Part shown: positions 5,849-62,190 of the stretch, piece by piece
Layout: each line of letters starts with the position of its first letter
Numbering within the stretch: position 1 is the first letter of the stretch
Source: Polyangiaceae bacterium
GTDB lineage: Bacteria; Myxococcota_A; Polyangia; Polyangiales; Polyangiaceae
DNA length: 64,000 nt
Direction of reading: 5' to 3'
Assembly (NCBI GenBank): GCA_050287085.1
Contig: JBNKBE010000016.1
Coordinates: 1 to 64,000 of the forward strand
Position numbers and translations under genes: made by a program
Notes under the pieces: generated by a model
What the model saw: the letters and a program-made list of their open reading frames with translations, nothing else
Told to the model about the DNA's origin: nothing
Databases searched by the model: none

Positions 5849-6577
5849 TCACCACGGGGATGGAACTCGACCCGCTGGGGTTCTCACGCCCTGGGCCGAG
5901 AGCGAAGGCAAGAGGACCTCTTCAATCACCGCTACGCTTTCGAGCAATGACTTCGGACTTGGCGGCCGTTCACGGGCGGGCGCGGGGATATTCGCGTGAG
6001 TCGCTTTCCGGTCTCCGCTGGCCTGGCTCTTGTCGCCAAGCGCTCCCTCTTGCGCTCGAAAGCGCAGGGCAAAACACTCCCGCAAGCTGAAGCCGATCGC
6101 CAGTAGCTCGACTTGCGCGTGGTTTCGGGTGGCCGAGGAGCGGCGCAGCCAATGACCACGAAAGCGTCCTGCGATGGTGCTCTCAGGTTGTCCTTCGAAT
6201 TCCTCTGGCCTCAGTCGGAAACGTGGGTTGCTGCGCTGCGCTTCGAGCGCGCAATCGGTTGCGTCCACCAGCTGCCCTGCGTTCCATCGCTTGAGCTCCA
6301 GGTCACTCCCCGACTCGCGGTGGCGTGCGCCCCACCAGCTGCCGTAGGACGTGTTCCGCCAGCGCTTGGCTTCAGGAAGAGCAAAGCTCAGACGCTGAGC
6401 TCGGAGCACCACGGAGCGTACTTCGTAGGCTGAGAGCGCTCGCAGGGGCGGGGGCGGCGGGCGGCTGTGTGCGGGCCGATTGGGTCCTGGGGCCTGGCTA
6501 CCGCAGCCGCCGCTCCAGCCAGCGACGAGACCAACCCAAACGATGACGCGCCACCCTCGCACCCAAGAACACAACAT
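5849..6577 (-). CDS. Hypothetical lipoprotein
   Basis: Hydrophobic N-terminus ending SGGC followed by a Pro-rich linker. It fills the gap convergent with the peptidase. Confidence 0.5.
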   Translation of the reverse strand: MLCSWVRGWRVIVWVGLVAGWSGGCGSQAPGPNRPAHSRPPPPPLRALSAYEVRSVVLRAQRLSFALPEAKRWRNTSYGSWWGARHRESGSDLELKRWNAGQLVDATDCALEAQRSNPRFRLRPEEFEGQPESTIAGRFRGHWLRRSSATRNHAQVELLAIGFSLRECFALRFRAQEGALGDKSQASGDRKATHANIPAPARERPPSPKSLLESVAVIEEVLLPSLSAQGVRTPAGRVPSPW

Positions 6578-6685
6578 CGGCTATAGCCCACGACTCCCCT
6601 TCTTGGCCAGCTGCGACCACCCCCTGGCTTCCTGGGGCCGTCACTTTTTTCTTGGCGCCTGTCCCGACGGTCATGCTATGTGTTC

Positions 6686-7435
6686 GTGAGCTGTCGAGCT
6701 CGACCTGACCTATGGTGGGGAGCGTTCTGCGGGATAGTGGGCTTGGAGGCCCCCCGCGATGCTTAACATAGCTGGTAAGTCCCGCCTGGTTGTTCGAACC
6801 GCAGGGTTTATGAGAACTGCAGGGCTTGTCAGAACTGCAGGTTGCTAGAGCCGCAGGTTGTTAGAAGTACGGTCTGACCCAATTTGGGGTGACCGAGTGG
6901 GATTGACCGAAATAGGGCTGATTGGAAATGGGGCAAGGGTTGCCTCTGCCGTTTCTGCCGGTGTCATCTCAAGCCCGGAGTTGATGGTGAAGGCACCGAC
7001 AACGTTCACCACTGAGGTTAGGCGATTTTGCGTAGATCTCGCACCCAAGAAGCCTGACCAGTCAAAGAAGTCGGAAATTCGGCAGGCAGAGCATGCGGCT
7101 CTTTTCGTTGAGAGAAATCATCACCGGGTAGAACTCACAATGGGTTGAGCCAGCCACCGCGGCGACGGTCTCGGAGGCATGTGGACTTGGGGCAAGGGTA
7201 GAGCCGGCTGCGCGCACCGTATTCTCACCGGCGCCCTTTGACCTGGTTCAGCGAAGCTAGAGGAATAGACTCAACCCACCAGTTTGTAACAAACCAGTTA
7301 ATGACGGCAGCCTTTCGTCGTTTTACGCAAACGAGGTACTGCCTGCAAAAAGCTTGATGGGGCTCGGTCCGGGGCGGGACCCGAGCGGCGCGGGTCCCGC
7401 TGGCGTGACTCGCTCCTTTTCGACGAGTTCAGCTA
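6686..7435 (+). ncRNA. Candidate large structured non-coding RNA (family unknown; strand and ends tentative)
   Basis: No credible CDS and visibly lower GC than flanking genes. Nested long-range helices: 6696-6702/7424-7430, 6717-6724/7411-7418, 6729-6735/7394-7400, 6779-6786/7373-7380, 7141-7149/7270-7278, plus many local hairpins. G-U pairs fit the + strand. Confidence 0.45.
6796..6866. repeat. Four short direct repeats GARCYGCAGG with 18/18/16/16-nt spacing
   Basis: Copies start at 6796, 6814, 6832 and 6848. Confidence 0.75.
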
Positions 7436-7598
7436 GCAGCAAGGGCAGATGGCACAGGCCCACTAGAGCAAGCATGTATCCCAGTCGGGTTGGCGGTTGT
7501 AGGCCCCTCTCGGGCTCCAAAAGGCGAGCGAACGACGTCGTGCTGTGAAACTTAGCCCCTCGGGGCACCTACAAGATCGAGGATATTCAGGAAGCTAC

Positions 7599-8201
7599 AT
7601 GGACGGACAGCGTCAACGAGTTGGCGGTCGTAGAAACCGCAAGAAAAAGAAGAGGGCAGAGCCAAAGGCACGGGCGGAACCCGTCACCATCGTGGCTCGC
7701 CGACCCGATTCCCCTCGCATGCTAAAGGTGTCCCGTCGCGGGATAGCGGCCTCGGCCCAGCCAAAGCGTGCACAACAGGATAACCCAGATGAAGTGGCGG
7801 ATGCCGGCATCAAGCTGGAGCCGGAACGTCGGCGTCGTGCGGCGCGTATCCTGGAAACCAAAGCGAGTCCTCTCACGGAAGATGAGTTGCGACAGGAGCG
7901 CCTCGTCGAACGCCTTCGCCTGAGCGAGGGGCGGGCGGCCATCACCGCCGCAGCCAATGCACTGACCGAGAGCGGGATTCAGTTTCCGGAGCAGCAGGAT
8001 GTTCAACTGCAATTGCTCGAGCACACCGACGAGAATCATGCGAGTCAAGCGATCGCCGTCATGCGTCGACTCCTCGAGGAGCAAGAGCCGATCAAGCGTC
8101 CGATTCTAGATCAGCGCTTGCGGCGTCTCGAGGACGAGGCTGAGGACACCGAGGTGCGGCAACAGGCGGCTGAACTGCGTCGCTACATTCGCGTGGCCTG
8201 A
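7599..8201 (+). CDS. Hypothetical protein (basic N-terminus, helical C-terminal domain)
   Basis: ATG 7599 follows AGGAAG. Its stop overlaps the next start (TGATG). Confidence 0.75.
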   Translation: MDGQRQRVGGRRNRKKKKRAEPKARAEPVTIVARRPDSPRMLKVSRRGIAASAQPKRAQQDNPDEVADAGIKLEPERRRRAARILETKASPLTEDELRQERLVERLRLSEGRAAITAAANALTESGIQFPEQQDVQLQLLEHTDENHASQAIAVMRRLLEEQEPIKRPILDQRLRRLEDEAEDTEVRQQAAELRRYIRVA

Positions 8202-8623
8202 TGACGCTGTCTGCTGCGGAGTTCGAGCGTGAGTTGGCCCTGCTGCAGCGGAGTCTGGACGGCGAACTCAACCATGGTTGTGTTCAGTGTCGAGACTGTC
8301 GTGGGTGTGTACGTTGCACCTTCTGCACGTATTCAGAGGGGCTTGTCGCATGTCACTACTGCGTGCAAGTGACGCGTTCTAGCGACAGCTCCCACTGCCG
8401 CGAGAGCTCAAGACTGATCGGTTGTCAGCACTGTGTTCAATCACAGGACTGCCTGGACAGCAGTTATCTCGTCCTGTGCAGAGGACTTAGCAAGTGCACG
8501 TATTGCTTCGGTTGCGTGGGGTTATCGGGCAAGGACTTCTGCGTGTTGAACAAGGCCTACAGTCGACAGGACTATTTCGCGTTGACTCGCGCGCTTTCGC
8601 GCGAGCTGCGATTGGAGATGTAG
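8201..8623 (+). CDS. Cys-rich repeat protein (CxxC periodicity)
   Basis: 17 Cys in 140 aa, often every third residue, with C-terminal CTYCFGCVGL...F.VLN..Y. Translationally coupled to the upstream gene. Confidence 0.75.
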   Translation: MTLSAAEFERELALLQRSLDGELNHGCVQCRDCRGCVRCTFCTYSEGLVACHYCVQVTRSSDSSHCRESSRLIGCQHCVQSQDCLDSSYLVLCRGLSKCTYCFGCVGLSGKDFCVLNKAYSRQDYFALTRALSRELRLEM

Positions 8624-8633
8624 GCGGAGTCCG

Positions 8634-8981
8634 GTGTCACCAGGGCAGGACACCGCGCGTGAACGACGGGAGGCGCTCGACTTGCTTTGGGCCCACGTCG
8701 AGCAGCATTGGGAAGAGCCCTCCGCTCACCAGGCGCTGCTTTCGCAGTGCAACAATCCGTCGGCGCTCTCGCACGTAGCTCGTCTCTATCGAGCCGCCCA
8801 GGCGGAACCGGAGAGGCGTGCCGTAGCCGAGCGCCAGCTGAAGGCGGTCTCTCTGCTGGCGTTTGCGCAGCTGCAACACGGGCCTCGACCCGCGCCAGGA
8901 AGGCCTATGAAGCGGTTCCTCGGGTTGTGGTTCGTCTTCTGCGTTCTGTTTGCGGCTATGCTCTTTCTCGCGCTGCGTTAG
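8634..8981 (+). CDS. Hypothetical protein with C-terminal TM helix
   Basis: RBS-like GGAG before GTG; C-terminal FLGLWFVFCVLFAAMLFLAL. Confidence 0.65.
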   Translation: MSPGQDTARERREALDLLWAHVEQHWEEPSAHQALLSQCNNPSALSHVARLYRAAQAEPERRAVAERQLKAVSLLAFAQLQHGPRPAPGRPMKRFLGLWFVFCVLFAAMLFLALR

Positions 8982-9147
8982 CCTGCGGAGTATAGACTAG
9001 GTCGGTCGTACGGTGTAACGTGTAACACTCGCTGGGCCGCATTCGTTCGAGGAATGCCTGAAACGCGCCCGTTGTTTCTCTGTCGGTGCGTTTTCTAGTA
9101 TGCGAAGGCATCCGCGCGCAGTTGCGCCGCGTACAGGAGGACAGTCA

Positions 9148-9762
9148 GTGAGATCAAGGCAAGTTACGGCTACCGTAGGTTCGTCAGCAAGCGCGCAGCG
9201 CGGGGCTTTCAGCACGTCGTGGGTAGTGGTCCTGCCAGCGGCGGCCCTGCTACTGAGCTCAGCTCTAACGGCGTGTGGGGGTGAGGCGCCGGAGCCGGTT
9301 GTCCCGACCCCGGTGGCCACAGTGCCCCCGCCCCCTCCGCCCCCCCCGCCCCCCATCGTGACCAAGGAAATGGACACGGGTTCCCAGGGTGACATCAATA
9401 TTTCCGCTGATATCCGCGCTGCTTGTGGCATCAGCGAAGCGGAAGCACTCTTCGCTTTCGATTCTGCCACGGTGCGCAAAGGGGATCTGCCCGTGCTGGA
9501 CAAGCTGGCTGCCTGCTTCTCTTCGGGTAAGCTCGCAGGGCGTAGGATGCGCCTGGTGGGTCATGCGGATCCGCGCGGCGACGAGGAGTACAACTTGGTG
9601 CTCGGTGGGCGCCGCGCTGATGGGGTGCGCCAGTACCTGATCGGCTCTGGCATGTCTGCGGGGCAGGTCGACTCCACCTCGCGCGGGGAAATGGACGCTA
9701 CGGGGACGGATGACGCCTCTTGGGCGCGCGACCGCCGCGTGGACGTGTTGCTAGCGGACTGA
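9148..9762 (+). CDS. pal: Peptidoglycan-associated lipoprotein (OmpA C-terminal domain)
   Basis: AGGAGG RBS before GTG 9148, lipobox LTAC, FAFDSA...GHADPRGDEEYNLVLGGRRA...DRRV; directly adjacent to tolQRAB. Confidence 0.85.
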   Translation: MRSRQVTATVGSSASAQRGAFSTSWVVVLPAAALLLSSALTACGGEAPEPVVPTPVATVPPPPPPPPPPIVTKEMDTGSQGDINISADIRAACGISEAEALFAFDSATVRKGDLPVLDKLAACFSSGKLAGRRMRLVGHADPRGDEEYNLVLGGRRADGVRQYLIGSGMSAGQVDSTSRGEMDATGTDDASWARDRRVDVLLAD

Positions 9763-9764
9763 GT

Positions 9765-10460
9765 ATGCAAGCGACAGAGCCCGTAGGTCGGCAGGCGCTC
9801 GATCCCTTCCAACTGATGATGCAGGCGTCCGGCGTTGTGCTGGTCGTTCTGCTCATCCTCGTTGTGGCGTCGTTCGCGGTCTGGGTGATTTGGTTTCTCA
9901 AGGCGTTCCAGCTGTCTCGCATGCGTCGAGCGCAGTTCGAGTTCGAGCATGCGGCGCGCGCCGCGACAGGGGTGGGCGAGCTCATGGGTCTCGCGCGTCA
10001 GCATCCGCTGGCCCCGGGGGCGCATATCGTTCGTGAGCTCGGCAAACGGCGCGCGCATCCGAATCTGAGCGCGGAGCTTCTGATGAGCGTGGCCAAGCGG
10101 GCCATTGTCGCCGAACAGCAACGCGCTTCCCGTCTCATGCCGGCTCTGTCGAGCATTGCATCATCCGCTCCCTTCGTGGGTCTCTTCGGCACGGTATGGG
10201 GCATCATGGACGCATTCCTTCAGATTGGTGCGCACAAGAGCGCTTCGCTTCCCGTTGTTGCTCCCGCCATCGGTGAGGCGCTGATCGCGACGGCCTTTGG
10301 CTTGGTCGCTGCCATTCCAGCTACGATTGGCTACAACTTCATCGACCAGAAGATCACCGATCTATTGGCTGAACTGGACGCGTCAAGCGAGACCTGGGTC
10401 GAGACCATGGCGGCGGATCCAAACCTGGCCGCTCACGCAACGCGCCCTGCAGCAGAGTAA
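9765..10460 (+). CDS. tolQ: TolQ/ExbB/MotA proton channel
   Basis: APFVGLFGTVWGIM and APAIGEALIATAFGLVAAIPA signature helices. Confidence 0.9.
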   Translation: MQATEPVGRQALDPFQLMMQASGVVLVVLLILVVASFAVWVIWFLKAFQLSRMRRAQFEFEHAARAATGVGELMGLARQHPLAPGAHIVRELGKRRAHPNLSAELLMSVAKRAIVAEQQRASRLMPALSSIASSAPFVGLFGTVWGIMDAFLQIGAHKSASLPVVAPAIGEALIATAFGLVAAIPATIGYNFIDQKITDLLAELDASSETWVETMAADPNLAAHATRPAAE

Positions 10461-10462
10461 TC

Positions 10463-10939
10463 ATGGGAGCGCAAATCGGGCGCGGTGGCCGACGCGGATT
10501 TCGCGACATCAATGTGACGCCCCTGGTCGACGTCATGCTCGTGTTGTTGGTCGTCTTCATGGTGACGGCGCCGTTGCTGACGACGGGACTTCAGATCGAC
10601 CTGCCTGATGTCAAGGCGGCGCCTGATGCAGCAAGCATCAAGGACGGAAGATTGCTCGTTACGGTCACCAAGGATCACCGTGTCCTATTTGGTGAAGATG
10701 ACGTGACCGACCACTTTGAGACGGCGCTTCTGGAGAACGAACGCGTCCAACGCGAGAAGGAGCTGTACATTCGTGCCGATAAGATGGCGCGCTACGGCAT
10801 CGTCGCCGAGGTGGTGGCCGCATCCCGCGCAGCCGGCGTTGTCTCGCTGAATCTTTTGGTTGAGCCGGAGACCGATGACAGCCCAGAGCCGTCTGAGGAA
10901 GGCAGCTCGAGTTCGAAGAAGTCCCCTCAGCCTCAATAG
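10463..10939 (+). CDS. tolR: TolR/ExbD protein
   Basis: INVTPLVDVMLVLLVVFMVTAP; IRADK.ARYG. Confidence 0.92.
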   Translation: MGAQIGRGGRRGFRDINVTPLVDVMLVLLVVFMVTAPLLTTGLQIDLPDVKAAPDAASIKDGRLLVTVTKDHRVLFGEDDVTDHFETALLENERVQREKELYIRADKMARYGIVAEVVAASRAAGVVSLNLLVEPETDDSPEPSEEGSSSSKKSPQPQ

Positions 10940-10945
10940 TAGACC

Positions 10946-11734
10946 GTGGCCTCCTCTGAGTACTCCGATCCCTCCTTTGCCGGGCGCGACGTTGTCGTGG
11001 CCGTGCTGTTGGCGTTTTGCGTGGAGGTGGGGCTGCTTGTTCTCTTGGGCACAATGGAACATCGTGCTGGGCCCGCGCGCGATGTCGTTCTGCCGCCCAA
11101 AGCGATAGCCGTCTCGATCAACCCGGTGGTGGAACCGAAGTTCCTGAAGCGCGGCAGCAAAGAAAAGGCCAAATTGCCGACTTTGGCGAAGCCAAAACCA
11201 CAGGCGAAGAAGCGCTACGAGGACAAGTCTGCGCCGAGCGTAAAGGCCGAGAAGCAGCGTGAAGAGCTACCGAAGAACGACGTAATAAAACACGACGAGG
11301 AGCCGCCTCCCAAGGACGCCGAGCTAGCAAGGTCGGTGGAGCCGGACATCGAAGTGGACCAGCCTGAGCCCACCTTGCAGAACGAGATCGGGCATGAAGA
11401 CGGAACCGAGGACGGAACCGAGACCGACCCGCTGAAGGCCCACGTTGTCAGCCAGTACCGATTGAAGCTGATCGCATGGTTCAAGGCCGGGTTTGTGACG
11501 GGTGATCCGTCTCAGTGCGCGCTGAGCGCGGTTGCTACAGTTGTCATTTCAGGCGGAACGTTTCAGAGCTACACGCTCAGTTCGAGCGGAGACGCGGCAT
11601 TTGACGCCCGGGTGCGCTCGACGCTGGACCGCAAGATCGGCCAGCAGGTACCCCCTCCACCGCCAAAGTATCCGGAGCTGCTCACCCCAACGCTTACCAC
11701 CCGCTTTTCTGGAAAGAATGCATCATGCAAGTAA
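10946..11734 (+). CDS. tolA: TolA/TonB-like energy transducer
   Basis: N-terminal TM, Lys/Glu/Pro-rich linker, C-terminal SSGDAAFDA motif; lies between tolR and tolB. Confidence 0.75.
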   Translation: MASSEYSDPSFAGRDVVVAVLLAFCVEVGLLVLLGTMEHRAGPARDVVLPPKAIAVSINPVVEPKFLKRGSKEKAKLPTLAKPKPQAKKRYEDKSAPSVKAEKQREELPKNDVIKHDEEPPPKDAELARSVEPDIEVDQPEPTLQNEIGHEDGTEDGTETDPLKAHVVSQYRLKLIAWFKAGFVTGDPSQCALSAVATVVISGGTFQSYTLSSSGDAAFDARVRSTLDRKIGQQVPPPPPKYPELLTPTLTTRFSGKNASCK

Positions 11735-13167
11735 GAATCGAGGACCCCAGAGTTTCTCCTGGCACCCGTGAGGCCGCGACGGCGTCAAGCTTCGGCTCTC
11801 ATCCCGGTCGGGTAGCGACCAAGCGGGTCGGCTTCTGGATGGTACTTGGCTGCATGGTGGCCGCACTTCTGCCAGAAACGCGCGCGTATGGGCAGACCAG
11901 GCCACAGCCGAGTGAAGATGCGCTGGGGGAACTGCTCATCACGGGGGAACAGGCGGATACTCGTCCCAAACTGGTGATTCTACCTTCGCTATCGCCCGAT
12001 CTTGAGGACGTTATCGTGCGCGGCGTCGTGCGCCGCGACTTCGAGTTGTCCGGATTGTTCCGCATGCTCGATGATGCCAAAGCGCCGCCCGGCTCCTACG
12101 GATTTGAAGATGCGGTGAACATCGCGGCTTGGCAGTCGCTCGGTGCTCAGATCATCGTCAAGCTTGCAGCGCGCAAGGTGGATGGTGAGCAGATCGAGGT
12201 CAAGGGGCTAGCGTACCTGGTGGCGGCGGGGCAGGCCCCGGTATATGAAAAGTCGATCGTGGTGCGCAAAAACCAGGTGCGGGTTACCGCCCACCGCATC
12301 ACCGACGCATTGCTCGGTGCACTCACGGGTCGCGAAGGAGGCTTCGCCAGCCGCTTGGCGTTTTCGACGAAGTGGGGGCGCAACCATACGCTCTTCACGG
12401 TGGACGCTGATGGTCACAACATCTCGCGGCAGACGGATCCTGCCATGACCAGCATGGCCCCTGCTTGGGGACCGGACGGCTACCTTTTCTACGTCGAGAG
12501 CCGCAACTACGCGCCGTTTCGGATGATGCGATTGGGGGAGAGTCGTCCACTAGCGCTGGAGTTCAAAGAATCGGTTTATGGCGTCGCGTTCAACGCCGAT
12601 GGCAGTCGCCTTGCCGTCAGCGTAGCAACTCCGGGCGGAAGCGCGATCTTCGTCGGCAACGGTGACGGTACCGACATGAACAAAGTGTCGAAGACGCCGC
12701 TGGCGGTGCACCCGGTGTTCAGTCCTTCCGGCAAGCTCGCCTGGGTCGGTGGGGAGCCGGAGCACGGCACGCAGCGCGTCTACGTGGACGGCAAGCCCGT
12801 TTCCCCAAGTGGCTTCAGCGCGGCGTCCCCCGCTTTTTGTGATAGCGAAGACGGGATTCGACTCGTGTTCTCCGTATCGGTAGGGGGCGATCGACGGGAT
12901 CTGGTCATGACCGGCGAAAGCGGCGGACCGATGGCGCGGCTCACCCAGGGCAAGGGCTCGAACACGTATCCCGCCTGCAGCTCGGACGGGCGGCTCCTAG
13001 CCTTCTTCTCCACTCGGGAGGAGGCACCCGGCTTGTACGTGAAGTCGCTGAAGACGTTTCAAGACATGAAGATATCGAGCCGCGTTGGCGAGTCTTTGCG
13101 CTGGGCCCCATTGCCTCCGCCTGACAAGCCCCAACCCACGGAGCCTGGTTTCCATCAACCCAAGTAG
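11725..13167 (+). CDS. tolB: TolB (N-terminal domain plus PD40 beta-propeller)
   Basis: DFELSGLF, AHRITD....LTGREGGFASRLAF, and repeats PAWGPDG / PVFSPSG / PACSSDG. True start may be downstream. Confidence 0.88.
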   Translation: MQVRIEDPRVSPGTREAATASSFGSHPGRVATKRVGFWMVLGCMVAALLPETRAYGQTRPQPSEDALGELLITGEQADTRPKLVILPSLSPDLEDVIVRGVVRRDFELSGLFRMLDDAKAPPGSYGFEDAVNIAAWQSLGAQIIVKLAARKVDGEQIEVKGLAYLVAAGQAPVYEKSIVVRKNQVRVTAHRITDALLGALTGREGGFASRLAFSTKWGRNHTLFTVDADGHNISRQTDPAMTSMAPAWGPDGYLFYVESRNYAPFRMMRLGESRPLALEFKESVYGVAFNADGSRLAVSVATPGGSAIFVGNGDGTDMNKVSKTPLAVHPVFSPSGKLAWVGGEPEHGTQRVYVDGKPVSPSGFSAASPAFCDSEDGIRLVFSVSVGGDRRDLVMTGESGGPMARLTQGKGSNTYPACSSDGRLLAFFSTREEAPGLYVKSLKTFQDMKISSRVGESLRWAPLPPPDKPQPTEPGFHQPK

Positions 13168-21263: not shown

Positions 21264-22970
21264 TTATTGGTCGCTCTCGAATGGACCCAGATCGGGCGCG
21301 CTCCCTGCGAAAGGCAGTCCGACGTCCACGCCCGCGTTGCGTAGATCGCTTCCGGGAGTGAGCTTCAGGTAGTCGATGTCAGGGAGGCTTCCGTCGCTCT
21401 TGCGAGGAGCCTTGAGCTGACTGACGTCCACACTGACGAAGTCGTCATTGGTCGCGGAGAGGCCGTTTTGCCAGCTGTTGTTGGCGATATCGGTGCGGGT
21501 TGCACTCAGGGAGCCATTAGTACCCAAGGACACGGTATTCTTGATGGTTAGGGCGGCGGCGATGTTGGAAGTGCTGAAGTTGATGTTGCTGCCGTTGTTG
21601 TGTGCGGCACTGTTGATGATCGTCACTTCACCGCGATTGCTGTTGTGGTCAAAGCCGTCATGCACGTTGCCAGCGGCGATGCACTGCCGATAGATCGCGT
21701 GGTGTGCGAGATTCTTGTCGTCGCTGCCACCGGTCTTGAAGCCGTTGCCATCTCCTGCCCCCACCGAGCCGTTCTTTAGCTTCCCATTGTCGATCGCCCA
21801 GCAATTCTCGTAGGTGGTCGTGATGTTTGTGGCCGGACGGAGGTATCCGTCCCAACCATCGTCCAGGTTGTTCCATGCGCGAGAGCCAACGAATCGATTG
21901 CCCGTGCCGACATCGAGCTTGGCCGCGAAGCCGTCGGCATTCTCTAGAGACGAGTCGGCATTGAAGTAGGAGTCGCAATTGAGGACGAGATTTTCGGATG
22001 CACCGTTGCCCAATTGTAGACCGGTGTCTGCACATTCGGAGAAGGTGGAAAACTCGATGGTGTTGTGCGAGCCGCTAACGAACATGCAGTTGTCGCCAGC
22101 GCCAGAGATATCGAGTCCGTATACGTGCCAGTAGTCGCCGGAGAGGATGAAACCCCGATTGCTCGAGTTCTCAGGCATAGCTGAGAAGTCGAGGTGAGGG
22201 CGTTCCTCGTCAAGGGGGTAGGCTCGCAGGTTGATGGGCAGAGCTTCACTGCCGTCGCCAGCGAGCCTGATGGTGGCATCTAGCGCGTATTGTCCGCCGC
22301 GGAGATACACGGTGTCGCCCGCGCTGGCCGTCGCAACGGCCTCAGCGAGCGGCAGTGGCGCGTCTAAGGAGCCGTCCGCTCCGGGCGACCCGTTCGGCGC
22401 CGCGTACACAGCATTAGGAGCGACATTGTCGGGGTCCTGTCCGTCCGCGCCCGCCGTGCCAGCGGCGTTGCCGTCGTCTCCCGCGTTGCCCCCTGCGCTT
22501 GTTCCGGCACTGTCCGGCGCTGAACCGGCGGTGTTCGGTACGCCAGCACTGCCCGCTGGCTCGCCGTCTGCCCCGCCTGTGCTGGCGCCGGCATAGGCCG
22601 GACCGGTCCCGCCAGGCGCACCGCTCTGGTTCCCACCGAGCCCCATGTTGTCGTTTGGAGCTCCGCCGTTGGTGTCGCCGCCCTCTGCGCCTGCCGCTCC
22701 GTCGCTGAGGTTGCCTGCCGTGCCTTGCGCGTTTGTCTCGCCACCGGAAGGGCCATCGTCCGGAGTACCGCTGCTCGCCGGGCTTCCGCTGTCGCCGTCT
22801 GAACAGGCGATGGAGAGCACAGCGATGGAGAGCGCAGCGATGGGGAGCACAGCCATGGAGAGCGCAGCGCTGCCGAGTCCCGCTACGCTTCGCAGCCGCT
22901 GCTTTCGATCGACGGAGGACGGGTACACGCTGGAGTGGAGGGAACGTGCGGAGATTGGGCTGCGACTCAT
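21264..22970 (-). CDS. Pectate lyase family PL9 (PelL-like beta-helix) lipoprotein
   Basis: NADGFAAK, RAWNNLDDGWD, GDGNGFKTGG; lipobox SIAC followed by a Gly/Ala/Asp linker. Confidence 0.85.
   Translation of the reverse strand: MSRSPISARSLHSSVYPSSVDRKQRLRSVAGLGSAALSMAVLPIAALSIAVLSIACSDGDSGSPASSGTPDDGPSGGETNAQGTAGNLSDGAAGAEGGDTNGGAPNDNMGLGGNQSGAPGGTGPAYAGASTGGADGEPAGSAGVPNTAGSAPDSAGTSAGGNAGDDGNAAGTAGADGQDPDNVAPNAVYAAPNGSPGADGSLDAPLPLAEAVATASAGDTVYLRGGQYALDATIRLAGDGSEALPINLRAYPLDEERPHLDFSAMPENSSNRGFILSGDYWHVYGLDISGAGDNCMFVSGSHNTIEFSTFSECADTGLQLGNGASENLVLNCDSYFNADSSLENADGFAAKLDVGTGNRFVGSRAWNNLDDGWDGYLRPATNITTTYENCWAIDNGKLKNGSVGAGDGNGFKTGGSDDKNLAHHAIYRQCIAAGNVHDGFDHNSNRGEVTIINSAAHNNGSNINFSTSNIAAALTIKNTVSLGTNGSLSATRTDIANNSWQNGLSATNDDFVSVDVSQLKAPRKSDGSLPDIDYLKLTPGSDLRNAGVDVGLPFAGSAPDLGPFESDQ
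22807..22869. repeat. 15-bp tandem repeat x4 in the PL9 signal peptide
   Basis: gcgatggagagcaca-like units at 22807, 22822, 22837 and 22852. Confidence 0.8.
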
Positions 22971-23188: not shown

Positions 23189-24286
23189 ATGTCGCCGCAA
23201 TCGTCGCGCCTCACAACGGCTCGCGCATCGCAAGCAGCAGGCGCATCGCAAGCAGCAGGCGCATCGCAAGCAGCAGGCGCATCGCAAGCAGCAGGCGCAT
23301 CGCAAGCAGCAGGCGGCGAAGGAGCCCTGGCCGGGGAGCAAGGACTTGTTGCGCGCCCATCGCCTGAGGCTCGCCGCCTCGGCGCACTTCGCAAGGAGAA
23401 TGCAAGGCTGGTGCGACAGATTGCGAAGAAACGGTCGGTCTTGGAGCAGATAACAGGACTTCAGCGGCTGGTAGGGCAACGGCTGAGCGAGGCGGGGGCC
23501 GCGTTTGGGGGACGCTACAACGCGGTTGGCACTGAGATCCGCCTACTGCTGGAGGGGCTGTTGGGGCCAGGCAGCGGGCTCAACAAGAAGGTTCGCGCTA
23601 GGATTCGGCGCGCGTACGGCGACCTGCTGGCGACTCTACCGGATGGTCTTACGCCGCGCGAAGCGGAGGACTCCGTGTCCGCGCATCGCGGACGGCAAGG
23701 GGCAACTGACAGCGACTCCGCGGGGGTCAGTCCGGGGGCACACACCCCGGGACCGGAGCGGAGCCTTCTGCTGCGCGCCTGCTTTCGGCGACTTGCTGTT
23801 GTGCTACATCCGGACAAGGTGCAAGACGACGCGTTGAGGCTGGAGCGCACGGCACTCATGAAAGAGGTGACGCGAGCCTACGATACGGCCGACTTGGCTC
23901 GTTTATTCGAGCTCGAGAGCGTGTGGTTGTCGGGGGAGGCCCATGCGGCAGACCTGGGTTCAATGAGTCAGAGGGTCGCGGATGCCGCGCTCGCGAATCG
24001 GGCGTTGCGTGGGCAATTGCGCCAGCTCACCCACGCCTACAAGCAAGCGCGCGCCGCGTTGCCGTTCGAGCTCGACCTGCGGCTGAACGCCACAACCGCC
24101 GAGCGAGTGGAGCGGAGCCTGTCGGAGCTCCTTGCTGCAGCTAGACGAGAGCTGGACCGGCTCGAAGAGTTGCGAGACTTCGTAGTCACCTTCCGCGCAG
24201 GGGACATGAGCCTGGACGCATTCTTGCTTGGGCCTCGCCCGGGCGAAATGCGCGTTGCGTCGAGCGACGCCACGCTCCGTGGGTGA
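23189..24286 (+). CDS. J-domain (HPD) coiled-coil protein
   Basis: FRRLAVVLHPDK...LMKEVTRAY..DLARL. Start uncertain (ATG 23189). Confidence 0.7.
   Translation: MSPQSSRLTTARASQAAGASQAAGASQAAGASQAAGASQAAGGEGALAGEQGLVARPSPEARRLGALRKENARLVRQIAKKRSVLEQITGLQRLVGQRLSEAGAAFGGRYNAVGTEIRLLLEGLLGPGSGLNKKVRARIRRAYGDLLATLPDGLTPREAEDSVSAHRGRQGATDSDSAGVSPGAHTPGPERSLLLRACFRRLAVVLHPDKVQDDALRLERTALMKEVTRAYDTADLARLFELESVWLSGEAHAADLGSMSQRVADAALANRALRGQLRQLTHAYKQARAALPFELDLRLNATTAERVERSLSELLAAARRELDRLEELRDFVVTFRAGDMSLDAFLLGPRPGEMRVASSDATLRG
23223..23312. repeat. Perfect 18-bp tandem repeat x5 (gcgcatcgcaagcagcag; encodes ASQAAG)
   Basis: Five identical copies read directly from the sequence. Confidence 0.95.
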
Positions 24287-25107: not shown

Positions 25108-25243
25108 GCCAAGGCGCGGGACTCCATGAGTCCTCTGTGGCCATCCTGGAGTCCTCCATGAGTCCTCTGTGGCCATCCTGGAGGACTCCATGAGTCCTCT
25201 GGGGCCTTGAGAGTGGAACCCCATGGGTCCTTCGGGCCTTGGC
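25108..25243. repeat. 32-bp palindromic tandem repeat cluster (REP/BIME-like) bounded by an 8-bp inverted repeat
   Basis: Units at 25122, 25154 and 25186 with GGACTC-CAT-GAGTCC cores; flanks gccaaggc (25108-25115) and gccttggc (25236-25243). Confidence 0.7.
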
Positions 25244-57239: not shown

Positions 57240-59111
57240 TTAGTCGTCTTCTGCGCGGCCGTCGCGGTGGCAGTTCAAGCAGAAGTTCACCGGTGCGTCG
57301 CCGCGGGGGTAGTTGCCCACATCGTTGTGTTCTCGGTCCATGCGGGCCCTGCTGTGAACGCCGGTGTGGCAGTTGACGCAGTCGGTATTGCCAGCTCCAT
57401 TCGGCCCAAGTTCGGGCTTGTGGCAGTCGTTGCAGGCAAAGCCGCTGTGGCGACCGCTACTGATGCGGAACTGGGCGTCGGGGTGTAGGCCACCACTGGC
57501 AGGCTTCCAGCCGCTGGTAGAGTGGCAGTCGGCGCAGGTGGTGGGGAAGTCGGAGTGCCCGGGGTAAGGGCTGCGATCGTAGTCGTCACGGTGGCAACCG
57601 ACGCATTCCTCGGGAGCATTGTCGTAGACCGGTGGATCGCCGGTGTGGCAGCTGGCGCAGCTGGTCGACGCGTGAGCGCCGGTCAGAGGCCACGGATGCT
57701 GGAAGCTCGGTCCGATGGAGGCGGGGCGCCATCCGTCGTTGCTGTGGCATTCCGAGCAATTGGTGGAGAATCCACTATGGTCGAGCGCAGCACCGGCGCG
57801 GTCATCATCGTGGCAATCGATACACTCGGTGGGAGTCCCTTCGTAGACGGGGGGCTCGCCGGTGTGGCAGTCGCCGCAGCTGGTCATGGCGTGAACGCCA
57901 TTGAGCGGCCACGAGTGAACGAAGTTGGGGCCTATGCTGGCAGGCTTCCATCCGTCATTGCTATGACACTCGGCGCAGTTCGTCGAGAAGTTGCTATGAT
58001 CGGGGGATGCTACGTTGTTGCGGTCATCGCCGTGGCAATCGATACACTCGGTGGGAGTCCCTTCGTAGACGGGGGGCTCGCCGGTGTGGCAGTCGCTGCA
58101 GCTGGTCATGGCGTGAACGCCATTGAGCGGCCAGGAATGCTTGAAGCTGGGGCCTATGCTGGCAGGCTTCCATCCGTTGTTGCTATGACACTCGGCGCAA
58201 TTCGTCGAGAAGTCGCTATGATCGGGCGAGGCAACGTTGTTGCGGTCATCGCTGTGGCAATCGATGCACTCGGTGGGAGTTCCCTCGTAGACAGGGGGCT
58301 CGCCGGTATGGCAGTCGCTGCAGCTGGTCATGGCGTGAACGCCATTGAGCGGCCACGAGTGCTTGAAGCTGGGGCCTATGTTCGCGGGCTTCCAGCCTTG
58401 GTCGCTGTGGCACTCGGAGCAGTTGGTCGAGAAGTCGCTGTGGTCCGGCGATATTACGTTGTCTCGGTCGTCGCTGTGACAGTCGATGCACTCAGTAGGC
58501 GTACCGTCGTAGACGGGTGGGTCGCCCACGTGGCAGCTCGAGCAGGGCGCAGCAGCATGTTCTCCCTCCAGGGGCCACGGATGTACAAAGCGCGCCGCGC
58601 TGCCGACGAGGGTGGCCGGCGACCAGGCGTCAGTTGTATGGCACGTCTGACACTCTTCTGGGAACGCACTGTGGTTCGGTTGAGTCACCTGATCGCGATC
58701 GTCGCGGTGACAGCCGATACACTCCTCAGGCGTGTTTGCGAAGACGACGGGCTCGCCGGTATGGCAACTGCTACATTGGGCGGCACCGTGAGCGCCGGTC
58801 AGCGGCCATTCGTGAGAGAACCCGGGGGCAGGCGACCAGAACTTCTCGCTATGGCAGTCCTCGCACGTCTCGGGCATGACTCCGACGTGCAAGGGGTTTG
58901 TCGCTTCGGCAAACTCATCGAGGTGGCAGCTCGCGCAGTCGCCAGAGACAACCGGGTGATGGTCCTCGACCTCCTGGCAAGCCGTGTTCGCTAGCGCGCC
59001 CAATGCAAGCATGAACCCGGCCATGCCGGCACGAGTTCCGCGCTTCTGCCTTGTGTGTCCGACCGGGGTTGTTTGGTCGGTCCCTTCCCTACACTGGTCG
59101 CCGTTAGCCAT
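57240..59111 (-). CDS. 23-heme c-type cytochrome lipoprotein with tandem triheme repeats
   Basis: 23 CxxCH counted; lipobox-like LANTAC; 74-aa repeats HSWPLNGVH-CxxCH-CIDCH-PDH-CxECH. Confidence 0.92.
   Translation of the reverse strand: MANGDQCREGTDQTTPVGHTRQKRGTRAGMAGFMLALGALANTACQEVEDHHPVVSGDCASCHLDEFAEATNPLHVGVMPETCEDCHSEKFWSPAPGFSHEWPLTGAHGAAQCSSCHTGEPVVFANTPEECIGCHRDDRDQVTQPNHSAFPEECQTCHTTDAWSPATLVGSAARFVHPWPLEGEHAAAPCSSCHVGDPPVYDGTPTECIDCHSDDRDNVISPDHSDFSTNCSECHSDQGWKPANIGPSFKHSWPLNGVHAMTSCSDCHTGEPPVYEGTPTECIDCHSDDRNNVASPDHSDFSTNCAECHSNNGWKPASIGPSFKHSWPLNGVHAMTSCSDCHTGEPPVYEGTPTECIDCHGDDRNNVASPDHSNFSTNCAECHSNDGWKPASIGPNFVHSWPLNGVHAMTSCGDCHTGEPPVYEGTPTECIDCHDDDRAGAALDHSGFSTNCSECHSNDGWRPASIGPSFQHPWPLTGAHASTSCASCHTGDPPVYDNAPEECVGCHRDDYDRSPYPGHSDFPTTCADCHSTSGWKPASGGLHPDAQFRISSGRHSGFACNDCHKPELGPNGAGNTDCVNCHTGVHSRARMDREHNDVGNYPRGDAPVNFCLNCHRDGRAEDD
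57500..58820. repeat. ~222-bp tandem repeat (about 6 units, central ones near-identical)
   Basis: cagctggtcatggcgtgaacgccattgagcggcca recurs at 57877, 58099 and 58321 (period 222). Confidence 0.9.
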
Positions 59112-60948: not shown

Positions 60949-62190
60949 GTGGATACAAGGAGAGCTTTGATGATATCGGGTCGTACAGTGACGGTTGGCA
61001 GTGCGGTTGGCCTTTTTCTGAGTGCTTGCGGCGTGGAGCCGGTGGACGGCAGTCCGGCGGGCGGCGCGTCGGGGATGGCGGGCGCCGGCGGGGGCGCTGG
61101 CGCCCCCGCGGAAGTGGCGGGCGGCGGCGCAGGGGGCACGGCCCCGGGCGCAGCAGGCGCGGTCGGAGTGGCCGGCATGACCACGGGCGGCATGACGGGC
61201 GCATCCGGTAACAGCGCTGGGGGCGCGAGCGCGGGCACCGACGGCGGCGGCATGGGGGGTGGTGTGGACGTTGCGGGTGCCGGAGGTGCTGAAGGCGGCG
61301 CTGCGACTGGCGGCGCTGCGACCGGAGGCGCTGAGACTGGCGGCGCTGAGACTGGCGGCGCGGGCTCGGAGCCCAGCGTGCCGGGGGCAATTCCGCTCGG
61401 AAACGATCCGGTGAAGAGCGCCGGCTGCGGCAGCATGCCGACGCTTACCGCGGGTAAACATACCATCATGAGCACGGGTCAACAGCGCAGCTACATCATC
61501 GATATTCCCAACGGCTACGATATGGACGAGCCACACCGGCTGTTCTATACCTCCCACTGGATCGGGAGTACCTCGGAGGCTGTCCGCGACCAGAACTACT
61601 ACTTCCTGAAGCCGCTAGCCCAGCGCGACGGTGTCCCGGCCATCTTTGTTGCGCCTCAGTCGGATGGTGACCGGTGGCAGGAGAAGGATCACGCACTCTT
61701 CGATGACCTTCTCGCGCTGGTCAAAGAAGATCTGTGTATTGATACGACGCGGGTGTTCGCGACTGGCTTTAGTTTTGGGGGGATGATCACCTACTCGCTG
61801 TCGGTCAACCATCAAAAAGACATTCGCGCCGCCGTGGGCATTGCCCCTGCCAACTACAATATCTATGTCCCGCCGCGCACCGGAGAGCCCATCGCCTGGA
61901 TGCAAACCACGGGCATGAACGACGGGACATGTCCTTGGGTGCAGCAGAACAGCGTCACCAACGGTGCCAAGTTCATTGCGATTGAACATGCCACCGACAA
62001 CGGCTGCGAGGTGCCGAACGACCTTCCGACCTGGCAAAACGGCGGGCACCTTTGTTACGATTTCGAGGGTTGTCCGAGTGAGTACCCCACCAAAGCGTGC
62101 ACCTTTAACGGCGATCACACCAACATCAGCAACGAGAACGGGCAGAACTGGATCCCGAATGAGTCTTGGGACTTCTTCATGCAGTTCTAG
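60949..62190 (+). CDS. Alpha/beta-hydrolase esterase (CE1 / PHB-depolymerase LpqC-like) lipoprotein
   Basis: Lipobox LSAC, Gly-rich linker, RSYIIDIP..Y, CIDTTRVFATGFSFGG (GxSxG), G.ND, F.GDH. Confidence 0.85.
   Translation: MDTRRALMISGRTVTVGSAVGLFLSACGVEPVDGSPAGGASGMAGAGGGAGAPAEVAGGGAGGTAPGAAGAVGVAGMTTGGMTGASGNSAGGASAGTDGGGMGGGVDVAGAGGAEGGAATGGAATGGAETGGAETGGAGSEPSVPGAIPLGNDPVKSAGCGSMPTLTAGKHTIMSTGQQRSYIIDIPNGYDMDEPHRLFYTSHWIGSTSEAVRDQNYYFLKPLAQRDGVPAIFVAPQSDGDRWQEKDHALFDDLLALVKEDLCIDTTRVFATGFSFGGMITYSLSVNHQKDIRAAVGIAPANYNIYVPPRTGEPIAWMQTTGMNDGTCPWVQQNSVTNGAKFIAIEHATDNGCEVPNDLPTWQNGGHLCYDFEGCPSEYPTKACTFNGDHTNISNENGQNWIPNESWDFFMQF

Follow-up and report, generated by a model that had tools for sequence, protein, structure and literature searches.

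A predicted 5' untranslated leader of variable length upstream of a conserved gene and a probable tol-pal-like operon in Polyangiaceae

Genes and coding content of the locus

In the 64,000-nt stretch of a Polyangiaceae genome analyzed here (the window), an interval of about 1 kb (6578-7598) separates a divergent ORF from a conserved ORF. The divergent hypothetical gene (5849-6577, minus strand; start uncertain) has a homolog at the same place in several relatives and matches no Pfam or NCBIfam family. The conserved hypothetical gene, here called X (7599-8201, plus strand), encodes 200 aa, and its start was moved from GTG 7545 to ATG 7599 because its orthologs begin with M[DE]GQ. X orthologs are present in all 17 genus genomes and in 22 of 24 family genomes, and the closest homolog is 62% identical. 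The conserved N-terminus of X is disordered, basic and rich in Arg and Lys, with near-invariant ARRP..P and AASA.P motifs, while the C-terminus is predicted to form a HEAT/ARM-like helical domain (pLDDT >90 over most of residues 91-200). X has no Pfam or NCBIfam family, its neighbors in the Atlas are unnamed Myxococcota clusters, and fold searches returned generic helical-repeat matches only (best Z 10.5; none in Foldseek at E ≤0.001), so that the fold pointed to no function. The genes that follow (8201-13167, plus strand; annotated with Pfam) encode a Cys-rich protein, a hypothetical protein, OmpA/Pal-like, TolQ, TolR, TonB/TolA-like and TolB proteins in an order that is largely conserved in 16 relatives. 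Judged from this arrangement, they probably form one operon headed by X and would be co-transcribed. The 140-aa Cys-rich protein directly after X (8201-8623) carries repeated CxxC units and matches no Pfam or NCBIfam family.

A first-pass annotation of the window had described about 1 kb between divergent genes with no convincing coding sequence and with lower GC, and both observations hold. According to a hexamer model trained on the genome itself, 6578-7598 is non-coding except for one weak minus-strand frame. Fourteen stop-to-stop frames of at least 50 codons overlap the interval; the only clearly coding one belongs to the downstream gene (score 40.8), an 82-codon minus-strand frame (7323-7568) is weak (5.1), and the remaining 12 have negative scores. 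A possible coding ORF at 6858-7148 was ruled out on a negative coding score and the lack of a Pfam match. The GC content is 0.55-0.59 as compared to ~0.61-0.65 in the flanks, and only 8 of 228 gaps of at least 600 nt are this low. The length of the gap is ordinary for the genome (49 of 4,263 gaps reach at least 900 nt), with the reservation that the gene caller was crude and that some of these gaps are missed genes. As a separate observation on composition, the high-numbered contigs C87, C88, C93, C112, and C138 of this genome (G000) contain AT-rich stretches unlike the rest of the genome, a possible contamination of the bin. Three sets of DNA contigs indicate that the probable source carries the region unbroken. 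A mobile element finds no support: the region is single-copy, with no second copy found in the genome, has no notable terminal repeats, and yields only matches of E ~1 in phage and plasmid collections.

A conserved promoter-like motif upstream of gene X

Upstream of X orthologs lies a conserved motif in which a T-tract is followed ~22 nt later by TGTG[C/G]TAT. At this locus it occupies 6644-6682 (plus strand), with the T-tract at 6645-6650 and an extended -10-like element, TG-C-TATGTG, at 6674-6682 (predicted start ~6688-6689). A matrix built from 23 short-leader orthologs only, with this genome excluded, assigns 20.0 bits to the site at 6644, a score reached at 4 of 12.4 million genome positions. 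The next-best score within 3 kb upstream is 7.6, and in leaders longer than 200 nt the matrix finds the expected site 22 times out of 23. As the -10 core resembles tRNA promoters of the same genome (e.g., TATGTT, TATGCT), the start was placed at ~6688. Its sequence and conservation within the family suggest that the motif is a sigma70-type promoter. Transcription from ~6645-6682 would then give X, and probably the tol-pal-like operon behind it, a non-coding 5' untranslated leader of ~910 nt (6688-7598, plus strand) continuous with the mRNA. The first-pass annotation had delimited a structured RNA of ~750 nt at 6686-7435. Its left boundary falls within 2-3 nt of the predicted start, its right boundary finds no support, and the leader most likely runs to ATG 7599.

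No internal promoter exceeded shuffles in the leader, although the scan is weak (best score 7.2 against a mean shuffle best of 9.4). In three sister-clade loci (L082, L161, L111), a common internal TTGACT-N16-TAAACG lies ~400-900 nt before the start codon and possibly represents a secondary promoter; transcription of some long leaders may therefore begin closer to the gene. Together with the low GC, this site would fit an alternative in which the region is an untranscribed or weakly transcribed spacer, or the remnant of a decayed gene or mobile element, and X uses an unrecognized promoter closer by. We consider this quite unlikely. No long leader has lost the far motif, and in the sister clade the first ~30-65 nt after it are conserved; a remnant is further opposed by the single copy, the lack of phage or plasmid matches and the missing coding signal.

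Folding of the region against chance

The first-pass annotation had interpreted the region as a large ornate RNA in the manner of GOLLD, ROOL or MISL, with ends that pair in a nested way. The quoted helix arms are all there (with GGGT at 6887), but pairing does not exceed chance. The MFE is -297.2 (z = -1.01; 19 of 118 shuffles equally stable), none of 34 sliding 120-nt windows reaches a z of -2, and helices of at least 7, 8, 9, and 10 bp number 265, 102, 43, and 15 versus 263, 104, 41, and 17 in shuffles. The four helices proposed to close the ends score 35, with a shuffle mean of 35.0 and 42 of 100 shuffles scoring as high. Forcing the whole proposed model yields -266.0 instead of -297.2, a cost of 31 kcal/mol. 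The listed helices are what chance gives; the first-pass annotation itself had cautioned that short helices arise by chance in GC-rich DNA. In the ensemble, only three local hairpins persist, at 7016/7059 (p 0.90), 7306/7343 (0.87), and 7374/7400 (0.92), and none of the long-range helices exceeds a p of 0.08. The arms of the 7374-7400 hairpin serve again in two of these long-range helices, which compete with it, as had been recognized, and are therefore not independent evidence.

Local structure is found at several places on the plus strand. Hairpins at the 5' end (6687-6702 and 6720-6764, the latter with pairs 6729/6757 and 6739/6752) have pair probabilities of 0.62-0.99 within 6687-6764, and the first 84 nt (6687-6770), a window picked after looking, fold with a z of -2.6 (2 of 200 shuffles). 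A local 8-bp hairpin, GGTTAGGC/GCCTGACC (7016-7059; p 0.90-0.99), has no homolog that we could find. An 11-bp GC-rich hairpin at 7373-7401 (p 0.80-0.92) has no adjacent U-tract and is not among the calls of a terminator scan; it is a possible pause or terminator-like site, and the short sequences that resemble it in G153 and G155 have unrelated surroundings. The last 166 nt of the leader are less structured than shuffles, the minus strand folds with a z of -1.8 (20 shuffles only), and the initial 70 nt, in a duplex test, give a z of -0.74 at this locus.

Could the region nevertheless be an independent structured non-coding RNA of ~750 nt, private to the lineage and closed by pairing of its 5' and 3' ends? 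Its 5' arm would begin at the predicted start site, its GC is unusually low, and no close relative is available in which covariation could appear: the genome sits on a long branch of the X tree (own branch 1.07), and the closest X homolog has 62% identity. Moreover, a folding z alone is not decisive, since the 6S candidate of the same genome scores +0.5 and real RNAs can thus be missed. However, RNase P, tmRNA, and SRP RNA of this genome reach -4.1, -2.6, and -2.5, while folding, helix counts and end closure of the region are at chance level. In a helix-chain test, the ends close above shuffles in one of 16 long leaders and at no shared position. Given that Rfam matches and homologs are missing as well (see below), we regard an independent RNA as very unlikely.

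Known RNA families and homologs

A search with 4,227 Rfam models produced no match in the region to GOLLD, ROOL, OLE or any other family. The sole match at E ≤10 was a chance mir-325 (E 1.4) outside the region, and nothing reached the gathering scores in 15 orthologous loci. The hallmarks of RNase P, tmRNA, and SRP RNA, which the first-pass annotation had reported as missing, are indeed absent from the region; the copies of the genome lie on contigs C8, C17, and C22, and a 6S candidate (37.4 bits, below the cut-off) lies on C6.

An alignable homolog of the region was found neither in 17 genus genomes nor in 382 family genomes, of which two candidates per genome were scored, nor among 24 long orthologous leaders. 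DNA searches returned short pieces only, in one of 40 relatives, four of 17 genus genomes (E 0.008-0.05), and six of 382 family genomes. The matches examined, with the genus match L047 left out, lie in unrelated contexts. Of the 17 genus genomes, the same search recovered 6S in 15; tmRNA was recovered in 14, in 12 of them near full length. Homologs with conserved, covarying stems are lacking at distances at which 6S and tmRNA are easily found. The orthologous position in relatives holds unalignable sequence of 108 to ~2,060 nt, and shared k-mers and pairwise alignments to the 24 leaders do not rise above chance (at best 1 of 30 shuffles, for two pairs). A literature search, which left most subscription papers uncovered, returned no description of the locus or of leader expansion in the family.

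Leader length and tandem repeats

The relatives that carry orthologous loci are labeled Polyangiaceae. Scans with single-protein queries found nothing, and alignment queries found 51 and 48 loci. The start of X was located in 99 loci (86 non-redundant), and 47 were kept at a motif score of at least 12 bits after removal of two duplicates; the loci dropped were mostly on contigs cut short upstream or had weak matches. Motif and gene are 108-212 nt apart in 25 loci and 305-2,057 nt apart in 21 (910 nt at the present locus), and one further locus has an uncertain leader of 1,362 or 2,530 nt. In an X tree of 53 rows, which does not include L113, L116, and G015, leaders longer than 215 nt fall into two well-supported clades and one unplaced row. 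In 11 of 13 genus neighborhoods, no gap found by a crude caller is longer than the one before X, and gaps of at least 1,500 nt are absent among 213 sampled elsewhere in G004 and G009. The position is therefore a hotspot, which drift alone does not explain.

The leader contains a decayed minisatellite (6778-6865, plus strand; TRF period 18, score 64) with four 16-18-nt copies of GARCYGCAGG... (6796-6865) and a degenerate fifth. Units of ~15-16 nt, TGACC...GGG, make up a second run (6872-6933, plus strand) in which decay has gone further; it was recognized by eye and is absent from the TRF output. A unit near-identical to that at 6796-6865 forms a fresh 18-bp intergenic array in G158 (L207; E 2e-7), between genes that presumably encode trigger factor and ClpP, which they resemble. 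Of 16 leaders of at least 600 nt, 13 are more repetitive locally than shuffles (≤2 of 100); of 24 leaders of up to 200 nt, one is. The units of the long leaders are short, degenerate and mutually unrelated, with no common motif. Inserted tandem arrays account for most of the difference between two closely related leaders, L107 (661 nt) and L117 (913 nt). Such variation in the copy number of units is seen between this pair and not for the present copy, which has no close relative.

Tandem arrays are common in the genome as a whole. We counted 359 intergenic arrays with periods of 8-40, corresponding to 32.7 per 100 kb versus 7.4 in coding sequence (4.4-fold), and the periods peak at 13-21 bp. 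Other arrays in the window lie at 57622-58526 (222 bp x4), 25119-25206 (32 bp x2.8), 23223-23315 (18 bp x5.2), 22807-22869 (15 bp x4.2), and 61294-61361 (15 bp x4.5). Words of the GCAG/CTGC type are mildly enriched in the array units of G000, several of which share an RGCCGCRG core. On its contig C34, short tandem duplications occur in spacers before tRNA-Tyr and tRNA-Gly that are presumably transcribed and non-coding. The repeat rate of the present leader is ordinary (rank 77 of 228). Recognizable repeats make up ~150 of its 910 nt (TRF covers 46 nt), so a duplication origin of the remainder is our extrapolation.

Constraint within the leader

In close pairs, the first 70 and the last 40 nt of the leader are kept better than the middle. 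The middle is not simply neutral, since the L107 and L117 leaders are 81% identical over aligned columns, more than the four-fold sites in X (65%, n = 98); for unrelated pairs of leaders, identity is ~60%. In the sister clade, the 5' end carries an invariant 10-mer, and a hairpin lies over the Shine-Dalgarno sequence of X (L107:981-1015 and 15 further loci) with 94.5% of cells paired. It includes one compensatory pair (G-C / G-U / A-U), and covariation is weak (22 of 500 shuffles). The short leaders have no single alignable structure in common (mean z about -0.8).

These features bear on whether the leader is a regulatory device, for instance an attenuator or a site of autoregulation to which X binds through its Arg-rich N-terminus; the hairpin at 7373-7401 would then act as pause site or terminator, and length and middle blocks would matter. 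The first-pass annotation had offered a long regulatory leader as its fallback. The long leader agrees with the conserved upstream motif and the left edge at the predicted start, while regulation stands as a rival that we judge unlikely. It would account for an expansion specific to this locus, for middle blocks conserved above four-fold sites in close pairs, for the sister-clade hairpin over the Shine-Dalgarno sequence and for the conserved basic, disordered N-terminus of X, and the autoregulated 838-nt deaD leader of E. coli sets a precedent in the available text of the source (PMC7430678). However, no motif common to the clades exceeds shuffles except the 5' 10-mer of one clade, the deaD mechanism needs Rho, which was not found here, and both RNA binding and autoregulation by X are speculation guided by its composition.

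Rho in the lineage

The RNA-binding domain of Rho was not found in this genome, which is 96.8% complete, and the best full-length matches of the Rho search are ATP-synthase-type ATPases. Rho was likewise found in none of 17 genus genomes and in three of 41 searched genomes. Among 275 family genomes that are at least 90% complete, it was found in 59 and not detected in 216, and 15 of 16 other sampled families of the order gave no detection. A published survey counts 1 of 12 Myxococcota as lacking Rho (PMC11347177).

What might the absence of Rho mean for leader length? As a factor, Rho terminates untranslated RNA, and hence its absence may permit long leaders; in other words, Rho loss may let long untranslated leaders persist. 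Termination of this kind was shown for the deaD leader (PMC7430678). Rho loss is not sufficient, since the Rho-less G019, G021, and G012 have short leaders and in the Rho-positive G020 the motif lies ~430 nt ahead of the first in-frame Met. The genomes in this comparison are related.

Comparison with known systems

Bacterial intergenic minisatellites or VNTRs consist of short tandem units whose copy number differs between close relatives. The present case shares the short units, their abundance in the genome and copy-number differences between relatives. It differs in that many unrelated units have piled up and decayed at one promoter-anchored site, and in that this copy is mostly decayed. Sponges of the CsrB/RsmB type are repeat-rich, poorly conserved non-coding RNAs with many GGA/ANGGA motifs. 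The leader is similarly repeat-rich and poorly conserved, and CsrA is present in the genome (a CsrA domain in L186, G000:C21:43352-43507, lies in a 184-aa open frame, which would exceed the usual length of CsrA should its start be far upstream). However, GGA occurs 13 times versus 21.0 expected and ANGGA three times versus 10.0, with no enrichment in relatives. This depletion excludes a CsrA sponge, also as a variant of the regulatory reading.

The likeness to MISL is one of size class only. The same applies to GOLLD, ROOL, and OLE, which have covariation-supported stems and Rfam profiles (10.1101/2024.12.08.627333). GOLLD and ROOL are described there as residing in phages or prophages, often near tRNA islands; here, no tRNA was found in the window, the neighborhood is a conserved core one, and phage matches are missing. 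The closest parallel to a deaD-type long 5' UTR is the stretch of hundreds of untranslated nucleotides from promoter to gene, with the upstream promoter facing the gene recognized here by sequence, as the conserved motif. The deaD leader is described as among the longest known in E. coli (PMC7430678). Unlike it, the leader studied here has 910 nt and those of relatives up to ~2,060 nt, with a ~19-fold range in length among orthologs, and no Rho was detected.

Interpretation and implications

We propose that the region is probably an inflated 5' untranslated leader of gene X rather than a new large folded RNA; if the regulatory variant is included, an inflated leader becomes highly probable. 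The ancestral leader would have measured ~110-140 nt. In this genus, it would have grown repeatedly by slippage-type tandem duplication of 10-20-nt units that later decayed into ordinary-looking sequence. Selection would act mainly on the ends, that is, the promoter, the 5'-end hairpins, and the ribosome-binding region, and the middle would tolerate insertions. The absence of Rho probably lifts the usual penalty on long untranslated RNA. An inflated leader leaves the low GC of the gap without explanation, and both the hotspot before X and the identity of close leaders above that of four-fold sites speak against purely neutral growth.

A further and more daring reading, which we rate as a long shot, is a functional but sequence-fluid long RNA with conserved ends and a freely expandable interior, comparable to telomerase RNA, that serves as a scaffold bound by the Arg-rich X, whose gene follows directly, and became evolvable through Rho loss. 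If true, Rho loss would be a route to kilobase-scale non-coding RNA in bacteria.

As a candidate for an ornate RNA, the region should be dropped. For termination specialists, the non-detection of Rho in 216 of 275 family genomes may be of more interest than the locus itself. What is left is a natural series: in a lineage without detected Rho, the same promoter and gene stand 0.1 to 2 kb apart, with non-coding DNA between them. Such a series makes it possible to test directly whether leader length is limited by Rho and how new non-coding sequence arises in bacteria.
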